Shown: positions 4,877 through 10,754, numbered from the stretch's first letter. The stretch: 64,000 nucleotides of DNA from Candidatus Shapirobacteria bacterium (GCA_020059745.1 JAGVBK010000004.1:26932-90931), one strand, 5' to 3'. Notes: generated by a model from the sequence alone, not told the origin. Program-made: numbers and translations.

Positions 4877-5740
4877 ATGAACAATTCTATAACCATTAAA
4901 GATGCTTCGGAAAAATTTTCCGAATTTTTAAAAAACCAGAAAAGAGCTTCAGCTACAATATTAGCATACACCAATGATATTGCGCAGTTGGCGAAGTTTC
5001 TTGAAGGAAAAGGAGTAGCGGCAACCACAGCCGTTAATCAGCCATTGCTTGAAGAATTTAAAGAAAACCTAAATTCAAGAGGCTATACTGCCAAATCCGT
5101 TTCCAGAAAAATAAACTCCATAAAAACTTTTTTCCGCTTTCTTAAAACAGAAGGCTATATTGAAACTGACCCGGCTGTTTCCGTTGCCCACCCAAAATAC
5201 GAGGTAAAACCGCCAAGAGTCCTTTCAAAGCTAGAATACCGAGCTTTAAGAGATGCTTGCCGCGGAGATGCCAGAATTTCTGCCATTGTTGAGTTGATGC
5301 TTCAAACCGGAATCAGGATCGGTGAAGTGGCAAACCTGAATTTAGAAGACTACAAAGGAGACGAAATTGTAATTAAGCCCTACGAATCACACGAAGGCAG
5401 AACTATTCCTCTAAACAAAGCTGCCAAAGAAGCTTTAGAAAAATATTTAAAAGAAAGGCCGGAAGTCAAAGAAAATGCTATTTTTGTAACTAAAACTGGC
5501 AGACCTTTTCTTATAAGAAACATTCGCTCTTCTATTGAGCGCTATTTTGAGCTAGCGGGAATCAAGGACGCAAAAGTAAATGATTTAAGGCACACCTGGG
5601 TTTACCATCATTTAGCAGCCGGTACCCCCCTCATTACCATCTCCAAATTGGCAGGACACAAAAGACTTTCCACTACAGAAAAATACCTGAAACTTCTTGG
5701 CGAGAAAAAAGAAGGCGCCGTTAAACTTGAAGAACTATAA
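4877..5740 (+). CDS. tyrosine recombinase, XerC/XerD family
   Basis: N-terminal SAM-like domain, catalytic region TGIRIGEV (Arg), LRHTWVYHH (His-x-x-Arg region), and GHKRLSTTEKYLKL (Tyr nucleophile). Confidence 0.85.
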   Translation: MNNSITIKDASEKFSEFLKNQKRASATILAYTNDIAQLAKFLEGKGVAATTAVNQPLLEEFKENLNSRGYTAKSVSRKINSIKTFFRFLKTEGYIETDPAVSVAHPKYEVKPPRVLSKLEYRALRDACRGDARISAIVELMLQTGIRIGEVANLNLEDYKGDEIVIKPYESHEGRTIPLNKAAKEALEKYLKERPEVKENAIFVTKTGRPFLIRNIRSSIERYFELAGIKDAKVNDLRHTWVYHHLAAGTPLITISKLAGHKRLSTTEKYLKLLGEKKEGAVKLEEL

Positions 5741-5765: not shown

Positions 5766-5778
5766 AATTTGTCTAATT
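5766..5778. repeat. left arm of inverted repeat flanking the four-helix-bundle pseudogene (AATTTGTCTAATT)
   Basis: The 13-nt aatttgtctaatt at 5766-5778 is the exact reverse complement of aattagacaaatt at 6337-6349. It is embedded in AATTAGNC short repeats. Confidence 0.6.
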
Positions 5779-6329
5779 AGACTAATTCGTTCTTCTTTAA
5801 GAATTCTCGTCTCTTTCTAAACAAATTCTCTCTAAATCCCCCCTCCTCTACAAACTTTTTCTCTTGAGCTCTAAGTAATTGATCCAAAAGAAAGGTTTCT
5901 TTATAAATCAGGCAAATCATTAGGTTTGCAAACCCTTCGGGCTTTTCCAAACTCAAATTTGCCCAATTAGACAAATTAGCCAAATTAGTCTCTTTATCAG
6001 TTGTCTCTCGGAAAGCTCTAATCTTCAAAACCCTCTACTATCATTCTTTGACCAAAGGGAAAGTTTTCTTCTCCTTAGAAAGTCCTTAAAATCTTCGAGA
6101 AGTTCACCATAACTGGCCCTCGCCACCCCGGTAAGTTTAATGTTCCCTCAAAACTTTTTTCAAGAGAACCTTCAACAATATTCTGTTTACCTGATCTTGA
6201 GGCCTGGATCATTTGTTCAACCGTCCTTTTTTCAGAATATTCAGGGAGAAATTTCTGACAGAAGAGGATTGTTCCGTCGTCAATCGTTACCGCCAGCCTA
6301 TAAACAAGTAAGCTTTCACACCCTCCCAT
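5777..6329 (-). pseudogene. four-helix-bundle protein with suffix domain (23S rRNA IVS-type), disrupted by two frame changes
   Basis: ORFs 6329..6075 (…RTVEQMIQASRSGKQNIVEGS…) and 6028..5777 (…LICLIYKETFLLDQLLRAQEKKFVEEGGFRENLFRKRRE) are the ends of one family member. The conserved middle, KLTGVARASYGELLEDFKDFLRRRKLSLW, is readable only in a third frame across 6135..6030. Confidence 0.7.
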
Positions 6330-6336
6330 GTTTCCA

Positions 6337-6349
6337 AATTAGACAAATT
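6337..6349. repeat. right arm of inverted repeat flanking the four-helix-bundle pseudogene
   Basis: See the left arm at 5766-5778. The surrounding sequence 6334-6369 carries three AATTAG(A/T)C units. Confidence 0.6.
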
Positions 6350-6369
6350 TTTCCAATTAGTCAAATTAG

Positions 6370-6410
6370 TGGACCAGCTTGGATTCGAACCAAGGACTTC
6401 CAACTTATAA
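6370..6410 (-). pseudogene. tRNA 3' half fragment W (from anticodon-loop TTATAA to discriminator)
   Basis: Minus strand: TTATAA GTTGG AAGTC CTTGG TTCGAAT CCAAG CTGGTCC A. The T-arm is perfect. The acceptor strand CTGGTCC is the exact complement of the 5' half at 6628-6634. No 5' partner exists for its anticodon stem. Confidence 0.7.
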
Positions 6411-6444
6411 TTTGCTTCGCAAAATATACTCTTTGGACCTTGTG

Positions 6445-6485
6445 TGGACGCGCCTGGAATCGGACCAGGGACCTGTTGTTTATAA
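6445..6485 (-). pseudogene. tRNA 3' half fragment Z (from anticodon-loop TTATAA to discriminator)
   Basis: Minus strand: TTATAA ACAAC AGGTC CCTGG TCCGATT CCAGG CGCGTCC A. ACAAC is the exact complement of the anticodon-stem strand GTTGT of the 5' half X. The acceptor strand pairs with X at only 5 of 7 positions. Confidence 0.7.
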
Positions 6486-6514
6486 CGCACAAAGCGCGGT
6501 ATACCGAATTTGGA

Positions 6515-6589
6515 TGGTGGAGCCAGATGGACTCGAACCATCGACGGCTACTTTATAAGAGTAGTGCTCTACCACTGAGCTATGGCTCC
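6515..6589 (-). tRNA. tRNA-Ile (anticodon TAT) with encoded CCA
   Basis: GGAGCCA TA GCTC AGTGGTA GAGC A CTACT CTTATAA AGTAG CCGTC GATGG TTCGAGT CCATC TGGCTCC A CCA. All four stems are perfect Watson-Crick, with anticodon positions 34-36 reading TAT. Confidence 0.88.
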
Positions 6590-6596
6590 AAATTCG

Positions 6597-6635
6597 TTAT
6601 AAGACAACCGCTCTAACCACTGAGTTACTGGTCCC
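6597..6635 (-). pseudogene. tRNA 5' half fragment X (acceptor to anticodon-loop TTATAA)
   Basis: Minus strand: G GGACCAG TA ACTC AGTGGTTA GAGC G GTTGT C TTATAA. This is followed by CGAATTT and then directly by the intact tRNA at 6589. The D-stem has an A10-C25 mismatch. Confidence 0.7.
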
Positions 6636-6639
6636 TACT

Positions 6640-7149
6640 TTAGCCCAAAAAGCTTGTATACTTACTTTCCCTATTATACCAAAACCCAGCCTTGTTTTGG
6701 GTTCTGAAACGGTCAGGGAAAATCGGTTTTAGCCAAGCAGAGTGGTGCTCTTTAGGTATTTGGTGAAAAGATAAAGATAAAGAGAGCTCTTCAAAACTGT
6801 CTGCCGGCATAACGGCAACTGACGGAACAGCTCTTTTTTCCTCTTCGTCTAAAAACTGCTGGTAGGTCGGGTCAACCGCAAAGACCTTATCCTTATAAGG
6901 CAGCCTCAAAAAAACATGTTCTTTGTAAAAGCCATTAGGATAAAAAAGCCTGGTATAAACCGGAGACAAAAGAGGAAAAGCTCTTCTTAGCTTTTGCCTC
7001 ATCGCCCATACTATGGAAAAACATTGCTCTGAATCAGGGCCGACTGGTTTTTGCAGTGTTTGAGAAACAAGAAAAAAAGCTTCTGAAGCCGCCTTGTTGA
7101 TGCTTGCACCAATTCCCGATTCATCGCTTTGGTTTACTCTTTCAAGCAT
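6640..7149 (-). CDS. hypothetical protein
   Basis: ORF track 6640..7197. An internal Met (MLERVNQ, 7149) avoids a 35-nt overlap with the upstream gene, so the start is uncertain. No recognisable motif. Confidence 0.5.
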   Translation of the reverse strand: MLERVNQSDESGIGASINKAASEAFFLVSQTLQKPVGPDSEQCFSIVWAMRQKLRRAFPLLSPVYTRLFYPNGFYKEHVFLRLPYKDKVFAVDPTYQQFLDEEEKRAVPSVAVMPADSFEELSLSLSFHQIPKEHHSAWLKPIFPDRFRTQNKAGFWYNRESKYTSFLG

Positions 7150-7162
7150 TAGAAAGATAATA

Positions 7163-9502
7163 TTATAACCTGGCTCTTTTGGCAATTTCCGCTTCAACCA
7201 AAGACCGTTCTTTACCGTACTTAAGCCGGGAAAGCTCTTTTATCTTTTCTGAAAGCTCAGGGCTCATTTCTTTCCAAATTGGTGGCATGTCGTCTTTCAT
7301 GCTAACTGAAAAAGAAGGTACAGGCTCGTTGTTAACAATGGTTTTTATGTAAGCATTAAAAGCCTCAATATTTAAAAGATCGCTTTCTGAAAATGTGGGC
7401 GAAAACTCATGCTGTAAATACTGGGCATCAGTTACTCCCACCCTAAAGGCAATTTTTGTTCCTACATTTCCGAAAACTGCATTTTTCACCTCTTCGTCCA
7501 TCTGGCCAATAAATTGGTTGGCCACACAAAGGCCAAGATGAAATTTCCTCGCTTCAGAAAGGATCTGGGCAAAATCAGGAGTGGCAAAGTTCTGAAACTC
7601 GTCCACATAAAGATAAAAGTCTTTTCTCTGAGCTTCAGGAATATTGGAACGGCTCATTGCAGCCATTAAAATTTTAGGAACAAGGATCAAGCCTAAAAAG
7701 CTCGAGTTTTCCTCGCCGATCTGGCCTTTGGCAAGATTAATGATAAGGATTTTCCCTTCATCCATTACCTTTCTAAAATCAAAAGCGCTTTTTGACTGGC
7801 CGATTATATTCCTTATCATTTTATTGGTGACAAAACGGCCGAATTTAGAAACAATGTAATCAAGGGTTTCTGATTTATGAAAATCAGAGGTTTGGGCAAT
7901 CTGGTCTGTCCAATACCTTCTTACCACCGGATCCTGAACCTTAGGAAGAAGTTCCTGAACATATCTTGGGTCAGTTAAACAGCGAACCACCTCAATAAAA
8001 GTGCTTCCCGGCTCAGACATTACCGTTAACATGGCGTTTCTAATTGCATGCTCAAACCTAGGACCGACAATTCCGGTCTTATAAGGGTCAAAGAGCTTAT
8101 ACATGAGGTTAATAATTGCCGTGGTAATGAAATGCTTTTGGTCCTCTGTCTCTGCCTCAAGCAGATTAAGGCCAATCGGCCGGTCAATATCAGCCGGAGA
8201 AAAGTAAATCACATCATCCGCCCTTTCCGGCGGAATAAGCTGCATTACCTGCTCAAAAGTATCATGAGGATCAATAAAACAAAAGCCCTTTCCGGCCTTA
8301 AGATCTTGGTGCATCATTTTTACCAAAAGCTGTGATTTGCCTGTGCCGGTAGCGCCAATAATATAAATATGGCGCATCCGGTCAGAGTCACCAATATGAA
8401 CCGGTTGCTCAGTACCCCTGAAAACGCTTTTGCCTAAATATATTCCCTGTTTGGGAATTTGCTGGGGAGCCGGCGCTCTTTTGGCATTAAGCCAAAAAAT
8501 ATGAGGTGTTTCCACAGTTTTATTGGGAAAGTGAAAAATAGTAGCCAGCTCTTCACTGCTTAAAACAATTTTGTTGCGGTTAAGATAAAAAAGAGGCTGG
8601 TAGCGGTAAATAAAATCAGTCATAAAAAGCTTGGGCAGTCTCACTTTATAGCTCTTAAAGCCATTTTGATCACCTGAAAGCTGTTCAAAAGCTGCTTTTA
8701 TATTTTGCAGATGGGCTTTGGCGGAAGCTAAGTCGGTAGAAGAGACAACAATTCTTATGTTTGTCTCAAAGTTGGGCTTTGAGCACTTGTTTTCGATTGC
8801 TTCCATTTGTTTGGGGTCAACTTTATAGCTTGCTTTTTCAGGATCGCTCTCGTCTTTTTTCACTTTTGAGATATATTTTCTGCCCGCAGAACGGTTGGTG
8901 TTTCCTGCCGGAGAAATAATCATCTGAATGGCTGCCCCTTCCCCTTCTTTCATTTTGGCCAAAGCCGAGGTAATTGAAGCAAGCGGATCAGTCGGCAAGT
9001 CTTTGTAGACTTTTATCGGCATATAGGAAGAAGACCTGAATTGAAGGTCGGTATAAGTTACTTTTCCTTTTTCAGAAAAAATGTTGTACTCGTTCACCTC
9101 TTTTATGTCTGCTCCGGGGTAGGTGCCGTGAATTTGTTTTTCCACCATATCCCTTAAATTTTTAGGCATGGAAACATAAAAGCGAATATCTTCAGGTAAA
9201 CCCACAATTTCAAAAGAAATGTGGTCCTGAAGTCTTAAAAAAGAAAGCTTCCCGCCTTTGTGGAGTGAAGAAAAAGAAGAAATCATCTGCTCGGCCGCGT
9301 CAATTTTTACTTCGTTGTCCCGGGGGACCGCTACTTGAAGAAGTACATACTCAAGCGATTTCTCTTCCCTTTTTCTGTTCCTGTACCAAATCACTAAAAC
9401 CTGGCCTAAAACCAAACCAAAAAGAGCTGTTAAAGTAGCTGCTAAAGCAGCGTTAATAAACAATCTTAAGTTGCCAATCAAGTCAATTAAATTAGAATTC
9501 AT
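7163..9502 (-). CDS. type IV secretion coupling-protein-like ATPase (VirD4/TraG/TraD family, membrane-anchored)
   Basis: 779 aa with an N-terminal TM, Walker A IIGATGTGKSQ and Walker B FYLYVDEFQNF. The segment ARKFHLGLCVANQFIGQ is typical of TraD/TraG-type DNA-transfer ATPases. Confidence 0.7.
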   Translation of the reverse strand: MNSNLIDLIGNLRLFINAALAATLTALFGLVLGQVLVIWYRNRKREEKSLEYVLLQVAVPRDNEVKIDAAEQMISSFSSLHKGGKLSFLRLQDHISFEIVGLPEDIRFYVSMPKNLRDMVEKQIHGTYPGADIKEVNEYNIFSEKGKVTYTDLQFRSSSYMPIKVYKDLPTDPLASITSALAKMKEGEGAAIQMIISPAGNTNRSAGRKYISKVKKDESDPEKASYKVDPKQMEAIENKCSKPNFETNIRIVVSSTDLASAKAHLQNIKAAFEQLSGDQNGFKSYKVRLPKLFMTDFIYRYQPLFYLNRNKIVLSSEELATIFHFPNKTVETPHIFWLNAKRAPAPQQIPKQGIYLGKSVFRGTEQPVHIGDSDRMRHIYIIGATGTGKSQLLVKMMHQDLKAGKGFCFIDPHDTFEQVMQLIPPERADDVIYFSPADIDRPIGLNLLEAETEDQKHFITTAIINLMYKLFDPYKTGIVGPRFEHAIRNAMLTVMSEPGSTFIEVVRCLTDPRYVQELLPKVQDPVVRRYWTDQIAQTSDFHKSETLDYIVSKFGRFVTNKMIRNIIGQSKSAFDFRKVMDEGKILIINLAKGQIGEENSSFLGLILVPKILMAAMSRSNIPEAQRKDFYLYVDEFQNFATPDFAQILSEARKFHLGLCVANQFIGQMDEEVKNAVFGNVGTKIAFRVGVTDAQYLQHEFSPTFSESDLLNIEAFNAYIKTIVNNEPVPSFSVSMKDDMPPIWKEMSPELSEKIKELSRLKYGKERSLVEAEIAKRARL

Positions 9503-10619: not shown

Positions 10620-10754
10620 TTAAGATTTAAAGGTCTTCCTTATGGAGAATTCCGCCTGTTTGCCGTCATTCCACTGTGATACCGGCCTTAAATAGCCGAC
10701 AATTCTTGAAAAAACTTCGCAGGGTTGCCTTTTTAAAAAAATCTGTTTGGACAT
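10620..10754 (-). CDS. 44-aa ORF carrying the class III RNR glycyl-radical motif (detached NrdD C-terminus)
   Basis: Below the ORF-track size cutoff. ATG 10754..10752 is preceded by AAAGGAGGTGAGA. The translation is MSKQIFLKRQPCEVFSRIVGYLRPVSQWNDGKQAEFSIRKTFKS. It contains the conserved SR(I/V)xGY...W(N)xGKxxEFxxR glycyl-radical signature that is missing from the 690-aa NrdD ORF. Its stop is 1 nt before the nrdG ATG. Confidence 0.7.
   Translation of the reverse strand: MSKQIFLKRQPCEVFSRIVGYLRPVSQWNDGKQAEFSIRKTFKS

Follow-up and report, generated by a model that had tools for sequence, protein, structure and literature searches.

The anticodon stem-loop of tRNA genes is a classic integrase target (reviewed in PMC4383910). 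In Islander-type insertions a mobile element has entered a tRNA gene, in many cases at its anticodon loop; it restores the function of the gene, and the displaced fragment stays alongside as an attL or attR fragment. Nested miniature inverted-repeat transposable elements (MITEs) and non-autonomous transposons are short non-coding inserts with inverted repeats, a subterminal hairpin and repeated self-insertion. Group I introns at tRNA position 35/36 occur in Patescibacteria (PMC13011429), and for the archaeon Caldiarchaeum a model has been published in which a tRNA gene is disrupted by a mobile element, a 1.8-kb insert with a recombinase (PMC3293823). Here we describe a locus with likenesses to all of these. 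It lies in a stretch of 64,000 nucleotides from Candidatus Shapirobacteria bacterium (GCA_020059745.1, JAGVBK010000004.1:26932-90931), hereafter called the window, which is a chromosome piece of a Microgenomates bacterium of the Candidate Phyla Radiation (CPR). An intact tRNA-Ile(UAU) gene is here enclosed between one 5' tRNA half, X, and two 3' halves, Z and W. The locus is probably a partly collapsed three-level nest of tRNA-Ile(UAU) genes, built by serial insertion into the anticodon loop.

The whole arrangement is on the minus strand. An earlier note on the window had given the order, coordinates and strand of X, a short leader, the intact tRNA, Z and W, and each element was found where the note had placed it; only the limit of X at 6635 has to be moved, the G at 6635 being an additional base outside the half. 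X (6634..6597, GGACCAGTAACTCAGTGGTTAGAGCGGTTGTCTTATAA) has the layout GGACCAG TA ACTC AGTGGTTA GAGC G GTTGT CTTATAA. It is followed by the cassette leader CGAATTT (6590..6596), which pairs with 6505-6511, and then by the innermost tRNA-Ile(UAU) at 6515..6589, a gene with encoded CCA that is called by ARAGORN and by Rfam (RF00005, 73.5 bits) and is the sole complete tRNA-Ile(UAU) gene within the window. The first spacer of 29 nucleotides (nt), at 6486..6514, is the trailer of this cassette and consists of TCC, the leader complement AAATTCG, GTATAC and the hairpin CGCGC-TTT-GTGCG, after which comes TTATAA. With these loop bases begins Z (6445..6485), the 3' half of a middle tRNA-Ile with the acceptor strand CGCGTCC. 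The second spacer (6411..6444, 34 nt) is the trailer of the middle cassette; its leader complement is decayed, AAAGAG standing in place of AAATTCA, and its hairpin TTTGC-GAA-GCAAA is intact. Last comes W (6370..6410), the 3' half of the outermost, resident tRNA-Ile with the acceptor strand CTGGTCC. X thus closes with TTATAA and both Z and W open with it, and both spacers end in a 5-bp hairpin immediately before it.

ARAGORN and Rfam call the inner gene only. A profile hidden Markov model of tRNA-Ile, run with nhmmer and with a search space of about 1 Mb, does detect the halves (E = 4e-6 for X, 7.8e-6 for Z and 2.8e-6 for W), and because of these values they are not chance tRNA matches. A repeat search of the window found the 42-nt 3' half in three copies with a spacing of 73-75 nt. 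All the pairings described in the note hold: the anticodon stem of X and Z (GTTGT/ACAAC) pairs at 5/5 positions and the acceptor stem of X and W (GGACCAG/CTGGTCC) at 7/7, while X and Z pair at only 5/7 in the acceptor stem. Joining X to W thus gives a molecule without anticodon stem and joining X to Z gives one with two acceptor mismatches, so that the window can form no canonical tRNA from its halves. The inverted repeat said to bracket the intact tRNA is present and is longer than the 10 nt proposed, namely 15 nt with 14/15 complementary positions (TATAACGAATTTGGA / TCCAAATTCGGTATA); it takes in TATAA of the left junction, that is target bases, and 3 nt of the cargo tRNA. The note had also suggested a search for further TTATAA-delimited halves in the genome. 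Within the 64-kb window, which is the part covered, neither further TATAA-delimited tRNA halves nor further matches to the cassette flanks were found elsewhere.

The origin of X became clear from close relatives, compared at an ATPase identity of 77-86% and referred to below, like other loci, by L numbers. Such a comparison had been called for in the earlier note, and it gave both empty sites and a full nest. The empty sites (L204, L205, L207) have a single uninterrupted tRNA-Ile(UAU) gene behind the same promoter motif, and its acceptor stem GGACCAG/CTGGTCC equals the 5' strand of X plus the 3' strand of W. The full nest (L208/L209) has three levels, with two 5' halves in front of an intact tRNA and two 3' halves behind it. 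Its outer 5' half is GGACCAGTAACTCAGCGGTTAGAGTGCCAACCTTATAA, followed by TGAATTT, and its middle 5' half is GGACGCGTAGCTCAGTGGTTAGAGCGGTTGTCTTATAA, followed by AAATAAAT and the intact tRNA; downstream of the latter come 39 nt, a Z-type 3' half, 35 nt and a W-type 3' half. Both outer levels of L208 pair at 7/7 positions in the acceptor stem and 5/5 in the anticodon stem. Z is identical to the middle 3' half of L208 at 40/41 positions, and the 5' partner of that half, GGACGCG, pairs 7/7. W is identical to the outermost 3' half at 41/41 positions, and its T-arm and acceptor strand are also those of the intact genes of L204 and L214.

Bases 1-15 of X (6620..6634, GGACCAGTAACTCAG), which comprise the 5' acceptor strand and the start of the D-arm, are identical to bases 1-15 of the outer 5' half of L208. 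Bases 16-38 (6597..6619, TGGTTAGAGCGGTTGTCTTATAA), which comprise the remaining D-arm, the 5' strand of the anticodon stem and the loop, are identical to bases 16-38 of the middle 5' half of L208 and of the outer 5' half of L206. The first part belongs to the outermost, resident tRNA-Ile and has W as its partner; the second belongs to the middle tRNA-Ile and has Z as its partner. By this comparison X is evidently a deletion chimera, in which two tandem 5' halves were fused by a 45-nt deletion with the crossover in the shared D-arm sequence CTCAG. Its origin from two former 5' halves explains why the acceptor strand of X finds its partner in W and the anticodon-stem strand its partner in Z. Both outer genes of the window are broken by deletion, and a working split tRNA, which the earlier note had left standing as an option, is unlikely in the window because X is chimeric.

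That two insertions were followed by a deletion is shown by the comparison with the relatives, and the steps can be given as follows. A promoter-less cassette with a second tRNA-Ile (GGACGCG/CGCGTCC) interrupted the resident gene (GGACCAG/CTGGTCC) in its anticodon loop. This second gene was in turn interrupted at the same loop position by a cassette of like design carrying the present intact gene. The 45-nt deletion between the tandem 5' halves, in CTCAG of the D-arm, then produced X; the leader of the middle cassette was lost in this deletion, and the leader complement in its trailer, the second spacer, has decayed to AAAGAG. The alternative in the earlier note that one tRNA gene is interrupted by another with TTATAA at both junctions is thereby borne out; it has happened twice here and recurs in relatives.

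The comparison also shows that the inner gene takes over the function of the interrupted resident gene. The only promoter-like element for the entire nest is an extended -10 element, TGGTATAAT (6673..6681, minus strand), read from the sequence 38 nt upstream of X, which presumably serves as the promoter of the nest. In L010, L018, L184, L204, L205, L207, L208, L210, L211, L213 and L214 the same motif, TGnTAnAAT, precedes the outermost 5' half, or the tRNA gene where there is just one, by 12-40 nt. According to our model one transcript would start at this resident element (6681-6673), and ordinary 5' and 3' end processing would release the innermost tRNA alone, X becoming part of the leader and Z and W part of the trailer. 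The DNA insertion itself would be site-specific and homing-like, directed to the anticodon-loop sequence, and would be tolerated only where a replacement tRNA of like orientation comes with the insert. Nests can build up because each insertion recreates its target, and later they would erode by deletion and gene conversion. Erosion of this kind is seen as lost halves in L017 and L184, as chimeric halves in the window, L018 and L143, and as mosaic single genes with the same acceptor and different cores in L204, L205 and L207. Between L125 and L189 the divergence increases from the inner to the outer shells.

The nest of the window has many counterparts. At least about 30 further nests, of tRNA-Ile and tRNA-Val genes, are present in Microgenomates and Paceibacterota. 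Clear nests, or halves remaining from them, are found among the syntenic loci in genomes (L010, L013, L017, L018, L055) and in the close clade (L184, L206, L208 and L214-L217, of which the last four come from independent assemblies and do not differ in sequence). A pattern scan over metagenome contigs gave at least about two dozen more, including nests of tRNA-Val(UAC/CAC) and nests of three levels. In these nests the anticodon loop of the outer tRNA holds the cassette, and the outer and inner tRNAs have the same amino acid and usually the same anticodon. Two tRNA types can nest in either order (L010 compared with the window), and one family of flanks is found around different tRNAs, namely GGACCAG-type (L214), GGACGCG-type (L208 and the window) and GGAGCCA-type (the window). 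One candidate, a distal "3' half" in L032, was discarded; it is a weak match (E = 0.08) and appears to be part of another RNA.

A phage or viral source of the cassettes was considered and rejected, since two scans of viral contigs gave no nest of the CPR type, only one chance match and an unrelated arrangement of a 5' half with an intron-containing tRNA. The latter is recurrent in its own right and was seen in the viral contigs L237, L238, L258, L260, L265, L272, L276 and L284, some of them giant-virus metagenome-assembled genomes, and in L116 and L165. Here an intron-containing tRNA is immediately preceded by a 5' tRNA half (GCCGCAT…CTTATGA), and the one 3' acceptor strand of that tRNA is able to pair with the 5' strand of either.

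As the source is a metagenome assembly and co-occurring strains have similar tRNA genes, it could be argued that the nest was stitched together from strain variants, or else that it arose by local tandem duplication and decay. We regard this as hardly credible. The same nest types are found in independent assemblies (L214-L217 from four samples, L208/L209, and the window with L001). The identical runs shared by the two halves fused in X are 8 nt at most, and therefore too short for an assembler to have collapsed them. Tandem duplication would give the order 5'-3'-5'-3', whereas 5'-5'-tRNA-3'-3' is observed, and the cassette flanks are structurally conserved.

The cassettes have a common plan: a promoter-less leader of 7-35 nt, a tRNA, and a trailer that contains the complement of the leader and runs into an imperfect hairpin bordering the outer 3' half. 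Inserts measure about 110-190 nt, and in all nests the inner tRNA has the orientation of the outer one. The longest perfect complementarity between leader and trailer has a median of 8 nt in nests compared with 5 nt in single tRNA genes (Mann-Whitney p = 3e-10). Within the clade this helix covaries: CGAATTT/AAATTCG in the window corresponds to TGAATTT/AAATTCA in L208 and L214, which is a compensatory change. The second spacer of the window is homologous to the trailers of L208 and L214, and in these three the position of the trailer hairpin is constant and its sequence differs. Between the left and right loop junctions the cassette of L143 is identical to that of L168 at about 96% of positions; the two loci have different outer tRNAs, and identity is only about 77% in the genes alongside. 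The inserted unit is thus discrete, and both its limits fall within the anticodon loop. Nest families differ in how many loop bases are found at both junctions, from 0 to 6. We define a CPR nested-tRNA-cassette family by three features, all of which the window has: an intact tRNA enclosed, on one strand, by the 5' and 3' halves of a tRNA for the same amino acid that is broken in the anticodon loop; a leader-trailer complement with a hairpin adjoining the loop bases; and a promoter element in front of the outermost level only.

Two side observations on cassettes and outer tRNAs should be mentioned. In L214 (5476-5509, also in L215-L217) the leader is triplicated (TGAATTT AATAATTATAA TGAATTT AATAA TGAATTT), including an extra TTATAA-TGAATTT junction, which may be a footprint of repeated insertion or of slippage. 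The outer tRNAs of L134/L151, L130, L168, L094 and L109 contain GC-rich single or double hairpins in the D-loop and/or the T-loop, e.g., TCACCCGCCGGGTGA-CCACCCGTAGGGTGG, and a perfect tRNA is obtained when these hairpins are taken out in silico.

The cassettes are similar to nested MITEs in being short inserts with inverted repeats and a subterminal hairpin that enter their own kind repeatedly. They differ in that the cargo is a functional tRNA, that the target is one loop of one gene, that the length of the duplication is not fixed, and that no dispersed copies are present within the 64-kb window.

In the integrase model proposed in the earlier note, the halves are attachment-site debris from elements repeatedly integrated and lost by means of the adjacent Xer-like tyrosine recombinase, which would cross over in the anticodon loop. 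The recombinase gene (4877..5740, plus strand), a Xer-family member as claimed, is indeed only 630 bp from the nest, TTATAA is found at both junctions, and the anticodon stem-loop is what such enzymes classically use. The same gene, in the same position, flanks uninterrupted tRNA-Ile genes in L204, L205, L207, L210, L211 and L213 and in dozens of distant relatives, and the order ATPase, tRNA-Ile(UAU), Xer-like gene is kept in dozens of relatives. In Paceibacterota, on the other hand, nests have no integrase nearby; those of L135 and L143 follow ftsH, and L218 is the matching empty site. Because the gene flanks empty sites and is absent from other nests, the model is not supported, and the link to the recombinase drawn in the note was not upheld. 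The empty sites have already largely refuted it, and we consider it very improbable.

The structure of the nest leads to the same result. In an Islander-type arrangement an element with its integrase would lie between the gene and the fragment; here 29 and 34 nt separate the pieces, and these spacers have a conserved layout unlike that of element remnants. Attachment-site fragments would be near-identical to the gene they were displaced from, whereas the 3' half of the intact gene shares only 27/41 bases with Z and 28/41 with W (counted by hand), so that these are not duplicates of it; they belong to different tRNAs, which have their 5' partners in L208. The identical core expected at both junctions is present in the window as TTATAA, while other nest families share 0-5 bases. 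The unit inserted in the nests, of about 110-190 nt, is a whole tRNA without integrase and not an attP copy of part of the target, both 5' and 3' halves are left behind, and the process is recursive. The recombinase that is nearby in the present case is there at occupied and empty sites alike.

Some observations weigh against the favoured reading, i.e., serial insertion with release of the innermost tRNA alone. No nuclease, transposase or recombinase is tied to the nests in the loci examined, and since the repeated junction bases vary from 0 to 6 between families they do not fit one transposase of fixed stagger or one tyrosine-recombinase core. Furthermore, the halves of the window and L208 are identical at 119/120 positions and so are far better conserved than expected for debris; for the same pair the yardsticks are 46% at the 4-fold sites of the ATPase gene, 25/33 in the spacer between Z and W and about 40% in the outside flanks, and even the intact inner tRNAs, at 64/72, are below the halves. 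When outer halves are joined in silico ARAGORN calls a tRNA-Ile in 12/13 nests, and the changes that distinguish the outer (acceptor) stems of L206 from those of L208, and of L125 from those of L189, compensate each other. The high conservation of the halves fits continued function of the outer genes, and it also fits lateral spread with co-conversion.

A different model takes the nests to function at the RNA level, the cassette acting as an intervening sequence with a tRNA inside it. Excision of the inner tRNA would be followed by trimming and ligation of the outer halves, and one transcript would give two or three tRNA-Ile(UAU) species. We consider this model unlikely, if clearly less so than the two rejected above. 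It would make the window a recent loss-of-function derivative. In its favor are the near-invariance of the outer halves between genomes with saturated synonymous sites, the compensatory acceptor changes just mentioned and the canonical structure of 12 of the 13 joined outer tRNAs; one of these 12, the outer tRNA of L151, is canonical once three separate insertions (in D-loop, anticodon loop and T-loop) are removed. The junctions between exons would read GTGCCAACCTTATAAGTTGGAAGTCC in the outermost tRNA of L208 and GCGGTTGTCTTATAAACAACAGGTCC in the Z-type tRNA. Minimum-free-energy folds show nested cloverleaves linked by a long helix, the duplicated UUAUAA copies are able to pair with each other, and the insertion is at position 35/36, as in the group I introns of Patescibacteria (PMC13011429).

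Against it speaks that the Rfam search, carried to E values of 10 for the window and 1 for L208 and L143, gave only tRNA at gathering score and no intron or ribozyme model; the matches below threshold are unrelated families. Nor was the archaeal bulge-helix-bulge motif (3-nt bulge, 4-bp helix, 3-nt bulge) seen on inspection of the folds, no dedicated scanner having been run; at the boundaries the anticodon stem, the leader-trailer helix and the hairpin meet in a three-way junction, or else the helix is continuous. In tRNA-Val nests a single excision cannot yield a 7-nt anticodon loop. One partner is wholly missing in L017 and L184, the orphan 5' half of L184 is pristine though it has no partner, and halves are chimeric in the window, L018 and L143. 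Selection to keep an extra tRNA with the same anticodon should be weak because it is redundant. The flank helices are without sense-strand G-U bias: sense and antisense folding energies of 21 flank pairs show no difference (p = 0.41), and as they are alike this comparison does not separate a constraint on RNA from one on DNA. To our knowledge, no bacterial tRNA splicing enzyme has been found.

If the outer interrupted genes were nevertheless expressed as tRNAs, which seems to us doubtful, the cassette would represent a novel kind of intervening sequence in bacteria, one that protein enzymes take out of a precursor with several nested tRNAs. With equally low probability, this removal would begin with end processing of the inner tRNA and go on to trimming and ligation at the anticodon loop, and would require neither group I/II ribozymes nor the archaeal bulge-helix-bulge pathway.

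Returning to serial DNA insertion, candidates for the agent were sought in known enzymes. A GIY-YIG homing nuclease was rejected since such genes are absent from the window and from most nests. Cutting of the IS200/IS605 type or the PsiI type (TTA^TAA) was rejected on junction anatomy alone, the junctions of several families being misfits, and no enzyme was found. Small GIY-YIG nuclease genes (about 85 aa) were seen as a separate matter beside tRNA or tmRNA genes in L008 (8521-8715), L032 (11353-11550), L039 (2789-2998), L041 (13434-13628), L042 (5222-5415), L140 (568-762), L065 (5592-5816) and L143 (6514-6768). The last one lies in the nest leader and is bounded, where the outer tRNA has its 5' end, by inverted repeats of 20 bp and a direct repeat of 7 bp (GGGCACA); it looks like a separate mobile insert.

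The group I tRNA introns share with the nests the host group, the loop, the 35/36 position and the gene orientation, and the logic of homing would explain the spread of the cassettes (PMC13011429). The nests differ by lacking a group I core and by an insert that is too short and contains a complete tRNA. Canonical splicing is impossible in the window, where the exons do not join to a canonical tRNA as they do in 12/13 nests of relatives. Like the archaeal intron-containing, split and tri-split tRNA genes and that of Caldiarchaeum, the nests have the break at or near the anticodon loop, a 5' fragment beside a second copy and a leader-trailer helix; they are, however, bacterial, have no bulge-helix-bulge and keep their pieces nested in cis. 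In the literature searched, which was covered in part, there is no description of nested or split tRNA genes in Patescibacteria. We regard the nested tRNA architecture as new, with the reservation that the mobilizing mechanism may be a variant of homing.

On the minus strand the gene order around the locus is a DUF8128/DUF87 ATPase, a 169-aa open reading frame (ORF), the tRNA locus and a frameshifted four-helix-bundle gene (5777..6329) of the 23S-IVS protein/Avd-like type, identified by Pfam and NCBIfam matches. The last consists of two ORFs in different reading frames (6329-6075 and 6028-5777), decayed as the earlier note had it, and intact homologues are present in L018, L206 and L213. It is variable cargo of an intergenic hot spot and outside the nest proper. 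The interval between the ATPase and the Xer-like gene (5777-7197 in the window, also in L184, L206, L207, L208, L213 and L018) is this hot spot of variable small genes, among them the 169-aa ORFan, Avd-like four-helix-bundle genes, intact or frameshifted, and ORFans of 295 and 434 aa without family match. An exact look-up of the recombinase matched only contigs identical to the window, and the contig of the closest ATPase (P0029, 94% identity) stops short of the tRNA locus.

L206 (6769-6982), L020, L036, L042, L027, L033, L055, L063 and L069 have the tRNA-Ile gene or nest in the opposite orientation with respect to the ATPase gene, a sign that the locus may have undergone inversions; TTATAA, the core of the loop, is a palindrome. 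Elsewhere in the window nrdD (12838-10766) is directly followed by a separate 44-aa ORF (10620-10754, minus strand) that carries the glycyl-radical motif (…SRIVGYLRP…), and the anaerobic ribonucleotide reductase is therefore split into products of 690 and 44 aa. The same split was called in L203, L205, L210, L211, L213 and L214.

Because ARAGORN and Rfam report the inner gene only, nests are invisible in current annotation, and they may be common in CPR genomes. They show how an essential single-copy tRNA gene can be broken at the anticodon loop and replaced from within, mosaic tRNAs arising afterwards via deletion and gene conversion, and this has a bearing on the question of the origin of split and intron-containing tRNA genes. 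Since each insertion recreates its target, the system behaves as a selfish element that needs neither self-splicing nor a promoter of its own. If the outer shells were functional, they would be the first bacterial tRNA intervening sequence beyond group I/II introns and would point to an RNA cutting-and-joining activity not yet known in these minimal-genome organisms.

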